This document shows positions 42,078 through 50,012 of a stretch of DNA of 64,000 bases, piece by piece. The stretch is from Nannocystis bainbridge (GTDB lineage Bacteria; Myxococcota_A; Polyangia; Nannocystales; Nannocystaceae): contig NZ_JAQNDL010000001.1 of assembly GCF_028368995.1 (NCBI RefSeq), positions 864,001 through 928,000 on the forward strand. The letters run 5' to 3'. Positions within the stretch are counted from its first letter, which is position 1; every line of letters starts with the position of its first letter. The notes under the pieces were generated by a model. It saw only the letters and a list, made by a program, of their open reading frames with translations, searched no databases and was not told the DNA's origin. The position numbers and the translations under genes are program-made.

Positions 42078-42434
42078 ATGAGCGCCCCCCGCGCGAATCG
42101 CCCCTGCGGCCGCTCGCCCGCGCGCGCCGGTGACCCCCGCGTGTCCCCAGGATCCCCCGTCGGAGCATTTCCGCGCCGCGCGAAATCATGACACGCGCGG
42201 CCGCGCACCTCTGCGCGAGATGTCGATAGCGCGGCCTGCCACGAGTCCGGCGGCGCGACCCGCCGCGCGGGCCCGACATTGACACCGCGCGGTCAATCGC
42301 CGGAGCACCGCCAAGCGGCGTCGAACACGGGTCTGCCGCGCGATGGACCGCCGACGAACTCGTGTGCGCCCTCGAAGTCACGCGCTCGTCGGCCCGCGAA
42401 CTCGCGAGGCTCGGCTACCCTGTTGTTCGCGGAG

Positions 42435-44102
42435 ATGCAGCGGCGCGCCTTCCCCAGCCTCCCGGGCATCGTCGTGCTCGGCGTCGCGGCCTGCACGGCG
42501 CCCGGCCTCGGCAACCTCACCCACGACCCGCCGGCGCAGGAGTCCGCGACGGGCGCGAGCGGCAGCGCCAGTGAGGACGGCCCGGCGACCACCAGCGAGC
42601 CCGCGCCGCCCACCGGGACCACCAGCGAGGACCCCGCGACCACCGCCGTCGGCAGCACCACCACCGAGGGCAGCAGCAGCAGCTCGAGCGGCAGCAGCAC
42701 CACCACCGAGGACGATCCGTCCGCGCCGCCCGCGATCGTCGACGGCGGTCTCGGCCCCGATCCGCTGCAGCAGCCCGGACCCGTGAGCGTCACCATCGAC
42801 ACGGCGCACGCCGACGGCGTGCGCATGCAGGTCGACGGCGGCCCGGTGATCGAGCTCGGCCCCGCCGAGGCCGACGCCTTCACCGGCGAGATCGTCGTCT
42901 ACACCGCGCTCGACAACGGCCCGCACTTCGCCACCTTCGTCGCCTGGCGTGGCGAGCTCGAGAGCGAGGCGCTCGAGCTGCCGTTCACCGTGGCCCTGCC
43001 GCCGATGGGCAGCGAGCTGTTCTGGGAGGGCGACAACGCCATCGGCCAGGGCACCGTCATCGCCCTCGCCGTCACCCCTTCGCACCACCTCATCGAGCTC
43101 GGCACTTATTATCCCCAGGGCGATGCGCGCTGCTACTTGCGCCGCCGCAGCCTCGGCGGCACCTGGGCCGACGGCGACCTGTTCGAGGTCAAGCCGGGCC
43201 TCAAGTGCAGCGCCATCGACCTCGCGGTCGACGACGACGGCGCCCTGCTCGTGCTCGTCGACAAGCTCGAGGGCGGCGAGCTGCGCTGGTGGCTCGGCAA
43301 GTACGACGCCTGGGCCGGCCAGCCCGTCAACGTCGGCGCTGGCGTCGTCGGTGACCGCGCCCGCGCCCTCGCCCGCACCGGCGACCGCGCCGCCGTGTGC
43401 GGCACCCGGCCCAAGGGCAACACCGTCACCGCCACCGCCTGGATGTTCGCCTCCGGCGGCGGGGCCGGCACGATCGTCACCTACGATTATTTGCCCCCCA
43501 CCCAGCCGCCCCTGCCCCTCGAATTCAGCGAGACCCCCAACGATTGCACGTTCCTCGACGATCGCCTGTTCATCACCGGCGAGGTCAAGGGCAAGCACGA
43601 GCAGGACAACGTCATCCGCGTGAAGCACTTCCTGCTCGAGTCCGGTTTCGCGGGCGAGGACCCGATCTGGAAGCTGGCGGCCTCGGGCTTCAGCCAGGGC
43701 GGCGGCCGCGTCATCACCACCGACGGCGACTCGCAGGTGATGACGGGCGGCTACTTCTGCGGCGATCAGTGCGACCCGCTCTCCGAGCTGCGCATGTTCG
43801 CCGGCGGCCAGCAGGTCTGGCGCCGCTCGCTGGACCCGCTGCTGCTCGACCCGCGGGCCCTCGCCTGGCACCCGGCCGGTTACGTCGTGTTCGTGGCCTC
43901 GCGCCAGCTCGAGAAAGACGTCACCTCGTTCTTCGCGCAGGCGTGGTTCCCGCTGAAGAACCAGTCGCTGTGGACCTACGAGCATCAGGACGGGCCCACG
44001 ATTCACACGCCCACCGCCCTGGCCATCGGCCCCTATGGCCAGATCTACGCCGGCGGAATCACGGCAGGCGGTTACCCCGCCGTCGCCATCATCGCCCCGT
44101 GA
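42435..44102 (+). CDS. Hypothetical lipoprotein (Ser/Thr stalk, Ig-like domain plus probable beta-propeller)
   Basis: GGAG before ATG 42435; VAAC lipobox; repeated (A/D)LA(V/I)xxxG blade-like motifs. Confidence 0.75.
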   Translation: MQRRAFPSLPGIVVLGVAACTAPGLGNLTHDPPAQESATGASGSASEDGPATTSEPAPPTGTTSEDPATTAVGSTTTEGSSSSSSGSSTTTEDDPSAPPAIVDGGLGPDPLQQPGPVSVTIDTAHADGVRMQVDGGPVIELGPAEADAFTGEIVVYTALDNGPHFATFVAWRGELESEALELPFTVALPPMGSELFWEGDNAIGQGTVIALAVTPSHHLIELGTYYPQGDARCYLRRRSLGGTWADGDLFEVKPGLKCSAIDLAVDDDGALLVLVDKLEGGELRWWLGKYDAWAGQPVNVGAGVVGDRARALARTGDRAAVCGTRPKGNTVTATAWMFASGGGAGTIVTYDYLPPTQPPLPLEFSETPNDCTFLDDRLFITGEVKGKHEQDNVIRVKHFLLESGFAGEDPIWKLAASGFSQGGGRVITTDGDSQVMTGGYFCGDQCDPLSELRMFAGGQQVWRRSLDPLLLDPRALAWHPAGYVVFVASRQLEKDVTSFFAQAWFPLKNQSLWTYEHQDGPTIHTPTALAIGPYGQIYAGGITAGGYPAVAIIAP

Positions 44103-44154: not shown

Positions 44155-45231
44155 TCACTGCGGGATGAAGGCCGAGCAGGCCTGGCTGATCCGGTCGGTC
44201 GCCACGTCGAACGCGGGCCGGTAGTCCGTCTCGTCGTTGTCGGCGATGTGCCAGTACGGGAAGTAGTATTTGACCAGATCGCACACCGTGTCCCACGGGT
44301 TGCAGTCCGGCTTTTGAATGCTGAACATCACCACCGAATCTGGGTCGCCGTGTTTGGCGCCGGTAATGGCATCGGCCCACTGCTTCGGCGTGCCCTCCGA
44401 GTCGGTGTCGGGCGTGTTCGAGATGAACGTGACCATCAGCAGCGCGTCGTCGCGGAGGAAGCCCGCGTTGCAGCCGCCGGGCTCGTTGAGCGCCGGCGAC
44501 ACCGCCGCCGTCACCGCCTCGCCGAGCTCGTCGTCGCCGCTGAGGCCGATCTGGGCCAGACACGCGAAGGTCCCCTGCAAGTCGGGCTGCTCGCGGGTGA
44601 GGTAGCGGCGCCCGCCGACGACCCCGCAGCTCTCATTGGTCGCCGCGTCGCCGGCGGGGAAGACCGTGCCGGCGCCCATCGTCGCGTCGCAGGCCGAGGC
44701 CTCGGCGACCGCGTCGCACGGATAACCCGGGTACGGGCACGCCTGGCAGGCGGCGTTGCACGCGGCGCTGCCCCACGTCTCGTCGCCGTCGACGACCATG
44801 ATGTGATAGTCGAAGTCGGCGAACTTGCTCTCGATGGTGGCGATGAAGTGCGGGAACGCGTCGATGAGCCGCGCCTGCATGTTCTCCATGTAGCCGAGGC
44901 GCGAGATCACGAACAGGAAATCGATCTTGCCGCGGCAGCCGACCGGGTGCGGATCGCCGAGGTCGGGCATCCCGAGGTCCTGCAGCGGCGTGGTCGTCGA
45001 AACCTCGCCGGTGGTGGTGCCCGTCGAGCTGTCCTCGGGGACAGGCTCTCCGGTGGTCGTCGAGGTGGTGCTCGTCGAGAGCTCCGGCACCTCGCCCGTC
45101 GACGCCGGGGCGGTCATCGCCGGCGGGACGGCGAACGACGACGCGGCCGGATCGGGGCCCTCGCAGGCCGCCGTCAGCAGCAGGCTCGCCAGGGCCAGCC
45201 GAGCGGGGCTGCGCCGGCGCTCCGCGGACAT
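44155..45231 (-). CDS. Lipoprotein with a degenerate vWA-like domain (KIDFLFV family)
   Basis: TAAC lipobox, Thr stalk, GCRGKIDFLFVIS..M...Q..L, DYHIMVV, CNAGFLRDDALL. Start taken at ATG 45231. Confidence 0.78.
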   Translation of the reverse strand: MSAERRRSPARLALASLLLTAACEGPDPAASSFAVPPAMTAPASTGEVPELSTSTTSTTTGEPVPEDSSTGTTTGEVSTTTPLQDLGMPDLGDPHPVGCRGKIDFLFVISRLGYMENMQARLIDAFPHFIATIESKFADFDYHIMVVDGDETWGSAACNAACQACPYPGYPCDAVAEASACDATMGAGTVFPAGDAATNESCGVVGGRRYLTREQPDLQGTFACLAQIGLSGDDELGEAVTAAVSPALNEPGGCNAGFLRDDALLMVTFISNTPDTDSEGTPKQWADAITGAKHGDPDSVVMFSIQKPDCNPWDTVCDLVKYYFPYWHIADNDETDYRPAFDVATDRISQACSAFIPQ

Positions 45232-46093
45232 GTCCGCAAGGACAGCCGAAGACCCTCCCCCGTCGGCGGTGAGCGCGGCGGCGGGCAGTTCCAGTGGCAA
45301 TACGGTAGGGTTTGGGCTCTCGCTGGCCGCCGGCGCGGCCACGACTGCACTCATTCCCCGCACGTCCCCAGCTTACCCCGACCGGGCGCAACCGCGCTGC
45401 GCGGAAGCGTGAGGTTCGAGGCTGCACATCGGCGCAGGGCCGCGCCTCAACAGTCCTTCGAGACATGTCCCGAAGTCTCAATCGTGACGATGTTCTCGCC
45501 GCCGAACCGTCGCCAGCCGCCGTTCCGACGGCGAGACGACCCATTGCGGCGCCGCGGCCCCACGCCCGAGGTTCGGGCCCTGGATCCACGAATCGGCAGC
45601 GGCGATCGGATCGCCTCCGCATCAAGGATTTAATAGTGCTGCACGCGGCGGAGAAGCGCGGCGCCCCGGGATCGTGCGCCGGAGCCGAACGGCCGCGGCA
45701 CCGCCTGTCCCGAGGGCCAGGTGAGAATCGCCGGAGCGTCGACCCCCGCGCTCGCGCCACTCCGACCAACATCATTCAGGCCCTCGCTCGCCGGCCGGCG
45801 ATTCGCTCCTCTTGATCCCAAGAGGCCGCCTCTGCCGGACCGTGGCCAGCCGGACCTGCCGACTGCGCGATTTCACCCATCTTGCCGAGACCGGCGAGCT
45901 CCGCATCCCGCGCACTCCTGGCAAGGCTTCCGGGCCGACTCTGGAGCTCACCGACGCCCGGAGACGCCCCGCGGACCTTCGCTCGCCCCGATTGTCCCTC
46001 GTAGCCCCCGATCGTTGGGCTCCGGGCTTCCTCGATGGGTGGCAGGCGGATCCCTGGACGGGCCAGCCCGCGACATGATAGTTTCGCCAGGTT

Positions 46094-47152
46094 ATGAAGC
46101 TTTGCGACGCCTGTCATCGTCACGTGCGCGCGAGCGACGGCGCCTGTCCGTTCTGCGGTCGCTGCCTGCGCACCACCGCGGCCACCCGCCTCGGCGCGGT
46201 CGTCTTGCTCGGCGCGCTGGAGACGGCGTGCAGCGGTCGGCCGGTCGAGGAGACCGCCGGGGACACGACGGCGCCGACCAGCAGCAGCAGCAGCGACACC
46301 TCCAGCAGCGCGCCGACCAGCTCGTCCTCCACGACCACGACCACGACGACCGCGACCGTCACCTCGACCGGCGATCCATCGGCGACCCAGGCCAGCAGCA
46401 CCGGCGAGCTCTCGAGCACCGGCGACATCGACACCAGCGACACCGGCTGCAGCTTCTATGGCGGCTGCCCGGCCGACTTCGCCAACACGATCGAGTGCAG
46501 CACCTTCGCCCAGGACTGTCCCGAAGGCCAGAAGTGCAGCTCGAAGCAGGTCGGCGATCAGTTCTTCGACGCGACCGAGTGCGTCCCGATCGCGCGCGAC
46601 CCGGACCAGCCGGGCCAGCCGTGCACGGTCGAGGGCTCGCCCAACTCCGGCCTCGACTCGTGTGAACTCGGCAGCATGTGCTGGCACGTCGACGCCCAGA
46701 CCCTCGCGGGCACCTGCGTGAGCCAGTGCGCCGGCACGCCCGACGACCCGGCGTGCCCTGCCACCACCACCTGCGTCCGCTTCAACGAGGCGCTGCACCT
46801 GTGCCTGCCGACCTGCGACCCGCTGGCCCCCGCCTGCGCGCCGGACGAGGTGTGCGCCCCCAACTCCTTCGACGCCAACGCGCTGTTCGTGTGCGTCGCG
46901 GACAGCTCGGGCGACGGCGGCGCCGAGTTCGAGCCGTGCGAGTTCGTCAACGCCTGCGACCTCGGCCTCGCGTGCCTGGACTCCGCGCTGGCCACCGAGT
47001 GCGATCCGCTGGCCTCCGGCTGCTGCCTGACCTACTGCGACCTGAGCGCGCCGACGTGCAGCGGCGCCGGGGCCGAGTGCACGCCGTGGCACGAGGACAG
47101 CCCGGCCCCGCCCGACCTCGAGAACGTCGGCGTCTGCGCGCTGCCGACCTGA
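46094..47152 (+). CDS. Cys-rich putative lipoprotein with N-terminal CxxC-RHV-CPFC leader and a single FYG motif; candidate splicease substrate
   Basis: MKLCDACHRHVRASDGACPFCG, hydrophobic stretch ending TAC, S/T stalk, SFYGGCP (Y122), then a Cys-rich domain homologous to 58628-59593. Confidence 0.85.
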   Translation: MKLCDACHRHVRASDGACPFCGRCLRTTAATRLGAVVLLGALETACSGRPVEETAGDTTAPTSSSSSDTSSSAPTSSSSTTTTTTTATVTSTGDPSATQASSTGELSSTGDIDTSDTGCSFYGGCPADFANTIECSTFAQDCPEGQKCSSKQVGDQFFDATECVPIARDPDQPGQPCTVEGSPNSGLDSCELGSMCWHVDAQTLAGTCVSQCAGTPDDPACPATTTCVRFNEALHLCLPTCDPLAPACAPDEVCAPNSFDANALFVCVADSSGDGGAEFEPCEFVNACDLGLACLDSALATECDPLASGCCLTYCDLSAPTCSGAGAECTPWHEDSPAPPDLENVGVCALPT

Positions 47153-47158
47153 CGCTGC

Positions 47159-47251
47159 GACATGTCCCCCGGGACATGTCGACTCATTGCATGGACATGT
47201 CCTCGAGGACATGTCCTTTTGGCGCGCGAATAAACCGTCCCGAAGGACAGG
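47159..47251. repeat. 14-bp unit arrays at a convergent junction
   Basis: Perfect units at 47163 and 47198; cores at 47161/47175, 47196/47210, 47234/47248. Confidence 0.88.
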
Positions 47252-47254
47252 CGC

Positions 47255-48574
47255 TCACGCGACCGGCACGCCGGGCCCGAACGGCATCACGTCGCGACCG
47301 ACGCGCGGGTCGTCGACCGCCACCGGCCCGCGGGCAGCGGCCTCCGGATCGGTCGCCTCCCGGACCACGCGATACAGACCGTGGTCGAACGGCAGCCCGG
47401 GGGCCGGTGCGACCGGCTCGATGCGCTCGCGCAGGCCGGCGCGGCCCAGCTCGAGCGCGCGGTGATGACAGTACGGATTGTTGCCCGGGCGGCCGAGCAG
47501 CGGCTCGCTGGTGGCCGAGCAGCCGGCCAGGCACACATCATTGTAATAGCAGTCGCGGCAGTACCCCCAAAGATCGTCCACGGTGCGCACGCGGGTGAAC
47601 TGCAGCTCGGGCGCGTCGGCCCAGATCTCCGCGAGCGGCCGCTCGCGCACGTTGCCGGCCACGTTGGCCGGGCCGCCGAGGCTGGGACAGCCCTTGATCG
47701 TGCCGTCGGCCTCGATCCCGAGCGCGTGGCGGCCGGCGATGCAGCCCTTGTAGTGCCCGCCCGCCTTCTGCCGCCCGCGCAGCTCGGCCTCGAGCGGCCC
47801 GAAATAGCCGAGGTTGTTGGCCGGGAACAGCCGCAGCCCGTGCGGCGCTGCGCGGGCGATCAGCTGCTCGATCACCGCGAAGACCTCCACCATCATGAAT
47901 GGTTGCAGCAGGATCTCCGGGTGGTCGGCCGCGTTGCCGAACGGCGCCGTGATCTGCAGCTGCCAGCCGCCGATCTTCTCGGCGATCAGCAGCTCCGCCA
48001 GCGCCGCGAGCGTCGGCAGCGTGAGGCGGTTGATCTGGGTGTTGACGGCCCGTCCGACCCCCGCCGCGCGCAGCCGGGCCAGCGCCGCGAAGGCCCGATC
48101 GAAGCTGCCGTGGACCCCGCGCAGGGCGTCATGCGCGGCCCGGGTCCCGTCGATCGACACGCTGACGCTGCGGATCCCCGCCTCTGCCAGCGCGGCCACC
48201 CGCGCCTCGGACAGGTTGAGCCCGCCGGTCGTCATCGTGCAGTCCATGCCGGCGCTGCGGATCGCCCGCGCGATCAGGATGAAGTCGTCGCGCAGATACG
48301 CCTCGCCGCCGATCAGCGTGACCTCCCCGATCCCCAGCGCGCGCAGGTCGGTGACCAGCGCCAGCGCCTCGTCGGTGGTCAGCTCGCCGTGACGCGCCGC
48401 CCCGGCCCGCGACCCACAATGGAGGCACTTCTGATCGCACTTCAGCGTCAGCTCCCACACCGCATAGCGCGGCGTGGGCACCTCCCCGGCGATTCGCGTG
48501 AGGGCGCGGCGATCGTCGGGCCGCGGCAGCGAGGCCACCACCGGCAGGCGGCGGCGATTGTCACGCAGGCTCAC
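47255..48574 (-). CDS. Radical SAM/SPASM enzyme, PlpX-like (splicease / nif11-class peptide maturase family)
   Basis: YAVWELTLKCDQKCLHCGSRAG (CxxxCxxC), EVTLIGGEAYLR, MTTGG, VSVSIDG; SPASM GCIAG..LGIEADGTIKGCPSL, YCRDC..C.AGC, GNNPYCHHRA, PFDHG. Confidence 0.9.
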   Translation of the reverse strand: MSLRDNRRRLPVVASLPRPDDRRALTRIAGEVPTPRYAVWELTLKCDQKCLHCGSRAGAARHGELTTDEALALVTDLRALGIGEVTLIGGEAYLRDDFILIARAIRSAGMDCTMTTGGLNLSEARVAALAEAGIRSVSVSIDGTRAAHDALRGVHGSFDRAFAALARLRAAGVGRAVNTQINRLTLPTLAALAELLIAEKIGGWQLQITAPFGNAADHPEILLQPFMMVEVFAVIEQLIARAAPHGLRLFPANNLGYFGPLEAELRGRQKAGGHYKGCIAGRHALGIEADGTIKGCPSLGGPANVAGNVRERPLAEIWADAPELQFTRVRTVDDLWGYCRDCYYNDVCLAGCSATSEPLLGRPGNNPYCHHRALELGRAGLRERIEPVAPAPGLPFDHGLYRVVREATDPEAAARGPVAVDDPRVGRDVMPFGPGVPVA

Positions 48575-48849
48575 GGCCTCAGGGTATCACGAGGCGGCGG
48601 CCGGCCGCCTGGATCGGGCGGACCGCCGTCGTCGACGTGCTCGGGCCGCTGCTCCTTCTTGGCGACGATCACGTGCTGGGTCGAGGGCGCCAGCATCTGC
48701 TGCAGCTCGGCCAGGGCGTTGCCGGCCCCCGTGGTCGAGGGCTTGCGGACCCGATAATAGATGTACCCGCGGCGCTCGAGCGCCAGCAGCAGGCGGTCGG
48801 CCACGAACAGCCCGACGACCACGACGACGACGGTGAGCGGCCACGACAC
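48571..48849 (-). CDS. Small membrane-anchored protein translationally coupled to the radical SAM gene
   Basis: N-terminal TM segment, DRLLLALERRGYIYYR, Pro/Gly tail; 4-nt overlap with the downstream start. Confidence 0.7.
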   Translation of the reverse strand: MSWPLTVVVVVVGLFVADRLLLALERRGYIYYRVRKPSTTGAGNALAELQQMLAPSTQHVIVAKKEQRPEHVDDGGPPDPGGRPPPRDTLRP

Positions 48850-48984
48850 GCAGCGATCCTATCGCGGGTCCTCCGCCGATCTGACACCGCCCGTCGGGAC
48901 CGTGACGCCGCGAACGACCGGCGCCCGCTCCGCGAGCCGTCGGTGCTCGGCGCGCCCGCCTCCATCAGCGGCGAGCGCGGCGGG

Positions 48985-49557
48985 TCACTTGCCCTGCGAG
49001 TCGGAGACGTACTTGGCGGCGACCTTGCCGAGGTTGCGCCCGGCCATCTCCATGCGCTGATGGTCGGACGGCGTGGTGAGGCTGGCGCCGACGCTCGTCT
49101 TGGTGTCGATGATGTCGGTGACGGTGCCGTCCTTCTGCCACGAGAAGCGGGCCTGGACCTTCGACGGCACGCTGTACACCGGCGTGTAGATGCCGGTCGT
49201 CACGTGCACGTAGGCGACCACCAGGTCGGGCTTGGCGTCGGCCGCCACGGGCACCGCGTTGACGCCCCGGTCGCGCATGCCCTCGAGGATCGCCGCGTCG
49301 GTCTCCTGCTTGATCTTGGCGAAGTCGGCCTTCTCCTCGTCGTTCTTGGTCGCCAGGTATTCCGCCTCGGAGCTCTTGTCGAGCACGGTGACCTGCGACC
49401 AGTCGAACCCGACCGTCATGCCCGTCATCCCCTTGAGGGCCGAGGGCGGCCCCGACTGCTGCACGACCGCGTAGGGCTTGCAGGCGGTGGCGGCGAGCGG
49501 CGCTGCGGCGAGGGCGAGCACGAAGGCGAAGCGGCGAAACAGACGGACGTGGGTCAT
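48985..49557 (-). CDS. Hypothetical lipoprotein
   Basis: Signal ending ATAC; strong GC3 bias. Confidence 0.8.
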   Translation of the reverse strand: MTHVRLFRRFAFVLALAAAPLAATACKPYAVVQQSGPPSALKGMTGMTVGFDWSQVTVLDKSSEAEYLATKNDEEKADFAKIKQETDAAILEGMRDRGVNAVPVAADAKPDLVVAYVHVTTGIYTPVYSVPSKVQARFSWQKDGTVTDIIDTKTSVGASLTTPSDHQRMEMAGRNLGKVAAKYVSDSQGK

Positions 49558-49721
49558 GGCCGGGGAGGATATCCCGGTCGAGGCGCCGGTGGCGCCCCTC
49601 CGACATGGCGCACCCTACGCACATCCGCGGCCCTCGTGCGCGCGACGGCGCCGAACCTCGTCGCGAGGGCGCTACCGGACAGTGACCGGACACCGCCTCC
49701 GTCCCGGCAACACTATGCCGC

Positions 49722-50012
49722 GTGACCGTGCCTTCCATCCAGATGCTCCATACCTTCGACCATGGAGCCGCCCTCGCGCATTACGAGCGGTCGATCGCTC
49801 GCATCGAGGCTCGGTTCGGCGCTTCACACCCGTCCCTGGCCGGGCTCCACAGCAGCGCCGCCGGTGAACTGTGCCAGCTCGGTCGCTACGCCGCCGCGAT
49901 GAAGAGCGCCGAACAAGCCATCGCCCTGTCGAACCTCGCCGGCAACTACGGCGAGATCTTCGACGAGGCCCAGCGCGTGCTGGCGCGCGCCCGCGCCCGC
50001 GTGTACCCGTAA
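49722..50012 (+). pseudogene. Short TPR-repeat fragment
   Basis: ALAHYERSIARIEARFGASHPSLA..LGRYAAA is TPR-like, but the ORF is only 96 aa with no clear start context. Confidence 0.4.

Follow-up and report, generated by a model that had tools for sequence, protein, structure and literature searches.

A radical SAM/SPASM enzyme paired with a zinc-ribbon-led lipoprotein in Nannocystis: a probable protein-modification cassette of the splicease kind

The locus and its products

We describe a gene pair of Nannocystis bainbridge in which a gene for a radical S-adenosylmethionine (SAM)/SPASM enzyme converges, across a gap of 102 nucleotides (nt), on a gene for a 352-amino-acid (aa) cysteine-rich protein led by a zinc ribbon. 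The pair lies in a stretch of 64,000 nt of contig NZ_JAQNDL010000001.1 (the window), in a genome of 11.05 Mb and about 72% G+C. The same pairing recurs across myxobacteria, and the two genes are, on balance, probably a protein-modification cassette of the splicease kind, with the cysteine-rich protein as the substrate. Features and their positions in the window are collected in Table 1; residue numbers are those of the 352-aa precursor, unless the enzyme is named.

The open reading frame (ORF) of the 352-aa protein begins with ATG, the first start codon after an in-frame stop four codons upstream, and has a G+C content at third codon positions (GC3) of 0.95. A first-pass annotation, made from the letters of the DNA alone, had divided the protein into a ribbon leader, a hydrophobic segment ending in TAC, a Ser/Thr stalk, a single YG site and a Cys-rich domain, and we find all of these parts where it placed them. 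The protein contains 34 Cys, its Cys-rich part running to residue 352, and only two Tyr, Y122 and Y314. Its single YG, at 122, stands in the context G-C119-S-F121-Y122-G123-G-C125-P. An AlphaFold2 model, computed from an alignment of 120 sequences, has a mean predicted local distance difference test score (pLDDT) of 81.8, with values of about 90 in the ribbon, about 45-57 over residues 29-130 and 90-98 in the all-beta domain (131-352). The F-Y-G site, at 52-57, belongs to a low-confidence, flexible stretch that is probably disordered, so that the site should be accessible.

The enzyme matches the Pfam families Radical_SAM (1.1e-20) and SPASM (3.4e-8). Its motifs are CDQKCLHC (enzyme residues 46-53), TLIGGE (86-91), GIEADGTIKGCPSL (286-299) and GNNPYCHHRA (364-373); both the CxxxCxxC core and the SPASM domain are present, and C46, C50, C53 and the SPASM cysteines are invariant across 64 sequences. 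These motifs, and the convergence on the lipoprotein gene, had likewise been read correctly at first sight. In the closest named relatives (Nannocystis pusilla, Nannocystis sp. RBIL2 and N. punicea) the enzyme orthologs are 92-94% identical; orthologs of the 352-aa protein, at 67-69% identity, keep the same synteny in three Nannocystis genomes.

Table 1. Features of the window and related loci
Feature	Position or loci	Strand	Basis or remark
352-aa precursor lipoprotein, proposed substrate	46094..47152	+	ORF and translation
Zinc ribbon C4-x2-C7-x-R-H-V-x6-C18-P-F-C21-G	46103..46159	+	proposed cytoplasmic docking/activating leader
Hydrophobic signal segment T31-C46, terminus lipobox-like L-E-T-A-C46	46184..46231	+	
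Ser/Thr-rich stalk, residues 47-117, predicted disordered	46232..46444	+	composition; pLDDT 45-52
F121-Y122-G123, proposed modification site between C119 and C125	46454..46462	+	
Cys-rich all-beta domain, Myxococcota-specific lipoprotein family	46469..47149	+	
Convergent intergenic gap	47153..47254	.	GGACATGTCC palindromes; hairpin and T-run after enzyme stop
Radical SAM/SPASM enzyme, 439 aa, GTG start, without own ribbon	47255..48574	-	Pfam and NCBIfam
92-aa protein, one N-terminal hydrophobic helix	48571..48849	-	GC3 0.91; GTGA overlap with enzyme start
GGACATGTCC palindromes	4531, 8905, 25654, 39120, 42057, 45226, 47193, 47207		
Four other cassettes of the same genome	L001 (G000:C1:1322000-1330000), L002, L003, L004		sites FIYAAPD, LPYGAPP, 4x EP[ED]YGVP, 3x TYAG[PA]DE
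Fused-ribbon loci (Acidobacteriota, mostly Pyrinomonadaceae, plus one Eremiobacterota genome)	L055, L061-L063, L068, L070, L073, L074, L076, L077, L082, L083		

Recurrent pairing of enzyme and ribbon-led lipoprotein

The Nannocystis genome encodes five enzymes of this type, the four others being 46-60% identical to that of the window. A ribbon-lipobox-stalk gene lies 102-282 nt from every one of the five, in convergent orientation at four of them and co-directionally at the fifth. The Tyr site of the window cassette reads SFYGGCP, and those of the other four are given in Table 1. A strict ribbon pattern, C..C.RH.{4,10}C[PA].C, has two matches when the 11-Mb genome is translated in six frames, each of them adjoining an enzyme paralog. 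A looser pattern has 41, seven of which are ribbon-lipobox-stalk proteins by inspection, and five of these seven flank the five enzymes. The two others are orphans with no enzyme nearby: L005 (G000:C1 ~2357728-2358195, minus strand), with the site AVYGVP, and L006 (G000:C4 ~322230-322624, plus strand), with PEYGSP. Because their ribbons, of the C-P-H-C type, resemble that of the partner of paralog D, the enzyme of paralog D may serve them.

We compared 85 loci, made up of 80 fetched loci, the window and the four paralog loci. A ribbon-leader protein is encoded within 3 kb of the enzyme in 61 of them, another 12 carry the ribbon on the C-terminus of the enzyme itself, and 12 show neither partner nor fusion, five of these being cut by contig ends. 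One of the five cut loci (L067, 1-378, plus strand) begins with a 5'-cut upstream ORF that contains RALYGMPADV (twice), RAAYGMPPQ and MPLYGAPPPP; it appears to be a substrate whose leader lies off the contig. At two further loci, L032 and L048, a second, unrelated radical SAM gene is found about 1.5 kb downstream on the other strand. In a sample of 301 Myxococcota genomes, the enzyme has matches at E<=1e-80 in 77, representing 57 of 209 genera.

These counts bear out the claim of the first-pass annotation that the lipoprotein is the partner of the enzyme, and the check that it proposed, on the co-occurrence of leader, Tyr site and enzyme across genomes, returns the pairing at those same 61 loci. 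Judged from gene order and sequence, the pairing is very probably real. Since it recurs in this form across myxobacteria, the lipoprotein is very probably the substrate of the enzyme.

A tyrosine site that accompanies the ribbon

Site statistics were drawn from the mature parts of the 71 partners with a lipobox-like Cys, which consist mostly of T, G, S and D. Of the 158 Tyr in them, 90 are followed by G and 33 by A, and P occupies position +3 in 91, against a background in those regions of 15.6% G, 8.8% A and 7.2% P. Some form of Y[GAS]x0-2P is present in 64 of the 71 partners. YG occurs in 48 and YA as the only form in 19, so that 67 have one or the other. The position ahead of Tyr is variable (T 24, L 21, A 16, D 14, P 10, F 9, others). 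Together, these figures give a site rule of Y-[G/A]-[G/A]-P-[P/D], or more simply Y-[G/A]-x-P.

The family of the Cys-rich domain has about 35 paralogs in the genome and 382 database relatives at E<=1e-5, and it offers a clean natural experiment: the paralogs differ mainly by the presence or absence of ribbon and Tyr. We inspected the junction between stalk and domain in 120 database relatives, eight of which lack a recognizable domain start, leaving 112. All 28 ribbon-bearing homologs carry Y[GAS] at the junction, as against three of the 84 ribbonless ones; of these three, one has its start called inside the ribbon and one is a fragment, so that two have cut N-termini. The other 81 read F-I-x-P-P-D-G-G at this place and have ordinary lipoprotein signals. 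The association over the 112 homologs has a Fisher p of 2e-23, a value inflated by relatedness. Among the roughly 35 paralogs of the Nannocystis genome, only the two ribbon-bearing ones have the junction Tyr. Furthermore, F121 is invariant in all eight aligned ribbon-bearing relatives, and Tyr falls in the same column in seven and one residue later in the eighth. Ribbon and Tyr site thus go together. What had been described at first as a YG site holds as a Tyr site tied to the ribbon; it does not hold as a strict YG, given the partners with Y-A only.

The Cys-rich domain itself has no clear relative of solved structure. Pfam and NCBIfam assign the protein to no family, a sequence search of the PDB found nothing, and Foldseek gave no PDB match to the domain at E<=0.001. 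A wide VIA fold search reached a best Z of 3.4, all matches being cystine-knot peptides of 30-50 residues over residues 169-211 or 275-322, which is too weak for naming a fold or function. The Atlas neighbors of the domain are unnamed Myxococcota clusters. Public entries call the substrates 'hypothetical protein', 'Lipoprotein' or 'ribulose phosphate epimerase', and this last name is probably wrong for the family.

Placement of the enzyme

TIGR04103, the PlpX family, is the best NCBIfam match of the enzyme at 441.6 bits (cut-off 725), followed by TIGR03913 at 419.8 bits (cut-off 591.75), and the third-best family reaches 150 bits. With TIGR04103, the five paralogous enzymes score 389-441 bits and the next-best radical SAM protein of the same genome 93 bits. 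The match to TIGR03913 stops at profile position 392 of 477, and the C-terminal extension of that profile, a ribbon plus helix at about 393-477, is absent from the window enzyme. Clustered at 50% identity, the enzyme clade comprises 517 clusters (E<=1e-30). We scanned 110 of 150 cluster representatives among the matches listed, 340-700 aa in length, with NCBIfam: 106 match TIGR04103 and/or TIGR03913 at E<=1e-60, and three pass the TIGR03913 cut-off.

Such scores place the enzyme within the PlpX/TIGR03913 splicease-related clade. Because they fall under both curated cut-offs, it is a member of neither curated equivalog. The assignment to the PlpX family made from the sequence, and the comparison with hidden Markov models (HMMs) of splicease families proposed with it, therefore stand for the clade and for the identity of the two best families, and fail for curated membership. 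Public annotation of these enzymes is merely 'radical SAM/SPASM domain-containing protein'. A structure search found no solved splicease structure, the nearest solved chains being SkfB and PqqE.

The ribbon on enzyme or substrate

CxxCxRHVRxxxxxCPFCG is the consensus of the ribbon in the partner proteins, 69 of 71 of which have a spacer of 10 residues. The same element is found on enzymes. All 12 fused forms (Table 1) carry C-x2-C-x-R-H-V-x6-C-P-[FH]-C in frame at the enzyme C-terminus, followed by a short helix-like tail. Four of the five fused enzymes tested pass the TIGR03913 cut-off, with matches that extend to profile positions 466-475 of 477; the matches of the seven unfused enzymes tested stop at 390-395. 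A quick tree of the clade gathers the fused enzymes into a single group, nested next to unfused enzymes from Myxococcota. Another enzyme homolog, P0125, has the ribbon at its N-terminus, joined through a linker of some 60 residues rich in Pro and Ala.

All eight fused loci inspected encode, upstream of the enzyme, one or two small peptides in which P-x-Y-G and RGD[AL]xEMK occur; they read ...PPYGEAIRGAIARGDAQEMK.... They are the 'GDL motif' peptides of NCBIfam, which carry a conserved Y-G. Y-G is therefore common to both branches.

That the same ribbon is naturally fused to the enzyme fits a role as a docking or activating element, and the earlier suggestion that the ribbon leader may recruit the enzyme gains from these fusions. 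Richter et al. (PMC11414181) showed by experiment that the Y protein and the RhaA leader helix activate a splicease in trans, and also when joined to the substrate or to the enzyme C-terminus. The natural placement of the ribbon, with the substrate or at one enzyme terminus or the other, resembles that of the activators in those experiments. Such cis and trans placement could provide a minimal, ready-made handle for splicease protein engineering, parallel to the engineered enzyme-leader fusions of the same paper.

A proposed mechanism and its alternatives

We propose the following course of events. The 352-aa protein would be made in the cytoplasm, where its N-terminal zinc ribbon would dock onto, or activate, the radical SAM/SPASM enzyme encoded by the convergent gene. 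Still in the cytoplasm, the enzyme would act on the exposed F121-Y122-G123 at the end of the disordered stalk and modify Tyr122, probably by tyramine excision. The chain would then be exported while still unfolded, Cys46 would be lipidated, and signal peptidase II would take off the ribbon together with the signal peptide. Finally, the Cys-rich domain would fold on the envelope and form disulfides. The gene pairing, the link between ribbon and Tyr site, the clade of the enzyme and the presence of the ribbon on enzyme or substrate are seen in the sequences; the chemistry, the succession of steps, cleavage, location and any protease-inhibitor role are what we infer from the locus and its relatives. 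Published work describes spliceases as acting on X-Y-G and ketoamides as inhibitors of Ser and Cys proteases (PMC9811515, PMC11626197, PMC10533398, PMC11002830). By analogy with these enzymes, tyramine excision at Tyr122 is the reaction that we favor, if only slightly. If this is the true chemistry, backbone splicing would reach beyond small secreted peptides and would be a regular modification of envelope lipoproteins in about a quarter of the sampled Myxococcota genomes.

Several observations weigh against this proposal. As both scores of the enzyme lie below the curated cut-offs, transfer of function from PlpX spans a large distance. None of the 110 scanned representatives reaches the TIGR04103 cut-off and the tree contains no true PlpX sequence, so that the placement of the enzyme rests on HMM scores; the tree is, moreover, a quick one with a midpoint root, the careful search being unfinished. 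Ala follows 33 of the 158 Tyr, and 19 of the 71 substrates have only Y-A, a departure from the X-Y-G rule as published. No partner is seen at seven loci whose flanks are complete, among them the paralog B orthologs of N. punicea and N. exedens (L032, L048). Lastly, the lipobox L-E-T-A-C is atypical, with Glu at -3 where the canonical residue is L, V or I and where the partners most often have Leu (25 of 71), and cleavage by signal peptidase II is only predicted, so that the ribbon might stay as a cytoplasmic anchor.

The alternative that survives best, although we consider it unlikely, keeps the pairing and changes the reaction: the Tyr of Y-[G/A]-x-P would undergo a cross-link, a side-chain change or an epimerization, with no removal of tyramine. 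Scores under the PlpX family cut-off and common Y-A sites would suit such a reaction, as would C119 and C125, which flank the site in the window protein. SPASM enzymes also perform many kinds of reaction, and SkfB and PqqE are the nearest relatives of known structure. However, TIGR04103 and TIGR03913 score about 270 bits above every other SPASM family, and Y-G is common to the fused branch. In most partners, moreover, G/A and P are the sole fixed residues close to Tyr and no Cys lies there, and a thioether or three-residue cyclophane therefore cannot be the general reaction.

A second alternative accepts enzyme and site as proposed and concerns the N-terminus, the protein being a type II membrane protein whose uncleaved ribbon would serve as a cytoplasmic anchor or as a lasting partner of the enzyme. 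The Glu at -3 speaks for it, and membrane proteins commonly have a zinc ribbon ahead of a membrane helix. Yet a Cys ends the hydrophobic segment in 71 of 72 partners, and 70 of 71 have A, G or S at position -1 of that Cys (A45 in the window protein). Conservation of Cys46 reaches 90% or more across 120 aligned family members, the majority of them with ordinary lipoprotein signals, and it aligns with the lipobox Cys of paralogs whose signals are canonical. We consider a type II membrane protein improbable. Export as a lipoprotein is likely from these sequence features, and precursors of RiPPs (peptides made by the ribosome and modified after translation) that use a lipoprotein signal as leader exist for multinuclear iron oxidase (MNIO) enzymes (PMC13056109).

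It is very improbable that the ribbon protein is a regulatory or structural partner with the true substrate elsewhere: some enzymes have no visible neighbor, but the restriction of the Tyr site to ribbon-bearing Cys-rich members, and the strong Y-[G/A]-x-P rule within stalks of otherwise low complexity, would be left unexplained. Chance adjacency, in a genome rich in Ser/Thr-stalk lipoproteins with three more within 4 kb, is scarcely credible, as it is already contradicted by the pairing of all five paralogs, by the position of both RH-type ribbons of the genome next to this enzyme family and by the paired loci counted across the phylum.

Returning to a splicease-like cassette with the lipoprotein as its substrate, we may also speculate, quite tentatively, that the ribbon is a portable splicease activator or docking module, placed at the enzyme C-terminus in Acidobacteriota, at the N-terminus in P0125 and before the lipoprotein signal of the substrate in Myxococcota. 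A single N-terminal piece would then be leader, export signal and disposable tag at once. Beta-amino ketoamides might be written in this way into envelope proteins, including a folded 30-kDa lipoprotein, with arrays of sites whose pre-Tyr residues vary (T, L, A, D, P, F and others), and predatory myxobacteria could possibly display a surface shield of protease-reactive warheads.

Neighboring genes and the intergenic region

The 92-aa ORF lies directly upstream of the enzyme gene, and its GTGA overlap amounts to translational coupling. The first-pass annotation had seen this membrane protein in the place of PlpY, which our comparison does not sustain. The protein is conserved, at 83-84% identity, in three orthologous Nannocystis loci only (L007, L008 and L010), together with the upstream 190-aa lipoprotein, and a relative was found nowhere else in the genome, the four paralogous cassettes included, nor among the other loci compared. 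Its Pfam match to DUF4936 is weak and under the cut-off, and it contains neither P-x-Y-G nor RGD[AL]xEMK. Confined as it is to the three orthologous loci, it was rejected as a core component and is a lineage-specific accessory, outside the conserved system. As already remarked at first pass, no PqqD/RRE partner is visible; Pfam finds no such domain in the six neighboring proteins.

Three further lipoprotein-like genes flank the pair, at 48985-49557 (-), 44155-45363 (-) and 42279-44102 (+). The two that were compared, encoding 190 aa and 402 aa, keep their position in the three orthologous Nannocystis loci.

The palindrome GGACATGTCC occurs eight times in the window, against 0.05 expected. The gap between the two genes contains two copies plus a related hairpin, and the palindrome looks like a REP-like (repetitive extragenic palindromic) intergenic element. 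Its repeats explain the GTCP, EHVP and DMS peptides that recur in spurious ORFs. A terminator-like site at 47250-47235 (-) is not significant by count (one found, 1.1 expected). The promoter search found no sigma-70-like site, and Rfam gave no match at E<=0.1 over 45000-50000.

Comparison with known systems

A published survey recorded YG-rich neighbors in 189 genera, with 27 pairs confirmed (PMC10849128). No paper among the matches listed joins a splicease or spliceotide with a zinc ribbon or a lipoprotein, and a literature search on TIGR03913, TIGR04103, IPR026482 and 'GDL motif' gave nothing on the ribbon or on ribbon-led substrates. The survey of YG neighbors is reportedly that of Scott et al. 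2022 (Chem 8:2659-2677), whose title mentions 'peptides and proteins'. Ribbon-led lipoproteins may already be included in it, and novelty depends on this.

The sister branch in the quick tree, TIGR03913, is named in NCBIfam as the 'GDL motif peptide-associated radical SAM/SPASM maturase' (rad_SAM_trio). Catalytic core, ribbon motif C-x2-C-x-R-H-V-x6-C-P-[FH]-C and a neighboring Y-G peptide are common to both. In TIGR03913, however, the ribbon forms the C-terminus of the enzyme itself, and the substrate, a small Lys-rich peptide with a helical RGD[AL]xEMK tail, lacks an export signal; here the substrate bears both the ribbon and an export signal. The gene upstream of the window enzyme likewise encodes the 92-aa membrane protein and not a small P-x-Y-G/RGD[AL]xEMK peptide.

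Cytoplasmic SPASM enzymes that act on periplasm-bound proteins include the anaerobic sulfatase maturase and QhpD with QhpC. The window enzyme is unrelated to the sulfatase maturase and QhpD at family level, and its proposed chemistry is different.

A parallel in the use of the export signal is provided by the DAG-RiPPs (PMC13056109), which are modified in the cytoplasm, have a lipoprotein signal peptide as a leader that the housekeeping pathway removes, and include proteins over 30 kDa. There the enzyme is an MNIO and no zinc ribbon is involved, unlike the radical SAM/SPASM enzyme and ribbon described here; the words 'radical SAM', 'splice' and 'zinc' are absent from the text of PMC13056109.

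Spliceotide systems comprise PlpX/PcpX (type I, with PlpY/PcpY) and RhaX/RasX/RcsX (type II), acting on X-Y-G precursors. The window system resembles them in its radical SAM/SPASM enzyme, for which the PlpX model is the best family, and in its adjacent X-Y-G precursor. It differs from them in a score below the family cut-off, in Y-A sites besides Y-G and in having no protease or exporter gene. Its leader is a zinc ribbon with a lipoprotein signal, in contrast to the Nif11/NHLP or helical leaders of spliceotides, and its predicted product is an envelope lipoprotein with a folded domain of about 220 residues. The non-cyanobacterial types have no separate PqqD-like Y partner (PMC11414181), and none is visible in the window system; in spliceotide systems the activating element can be on substrate or enzyme, as is the ribbon here and in its relatives. 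By analogy, the enzyme and its ribbon-led lipoprotein would thus work in the manner of a Y-less spliceotide system.

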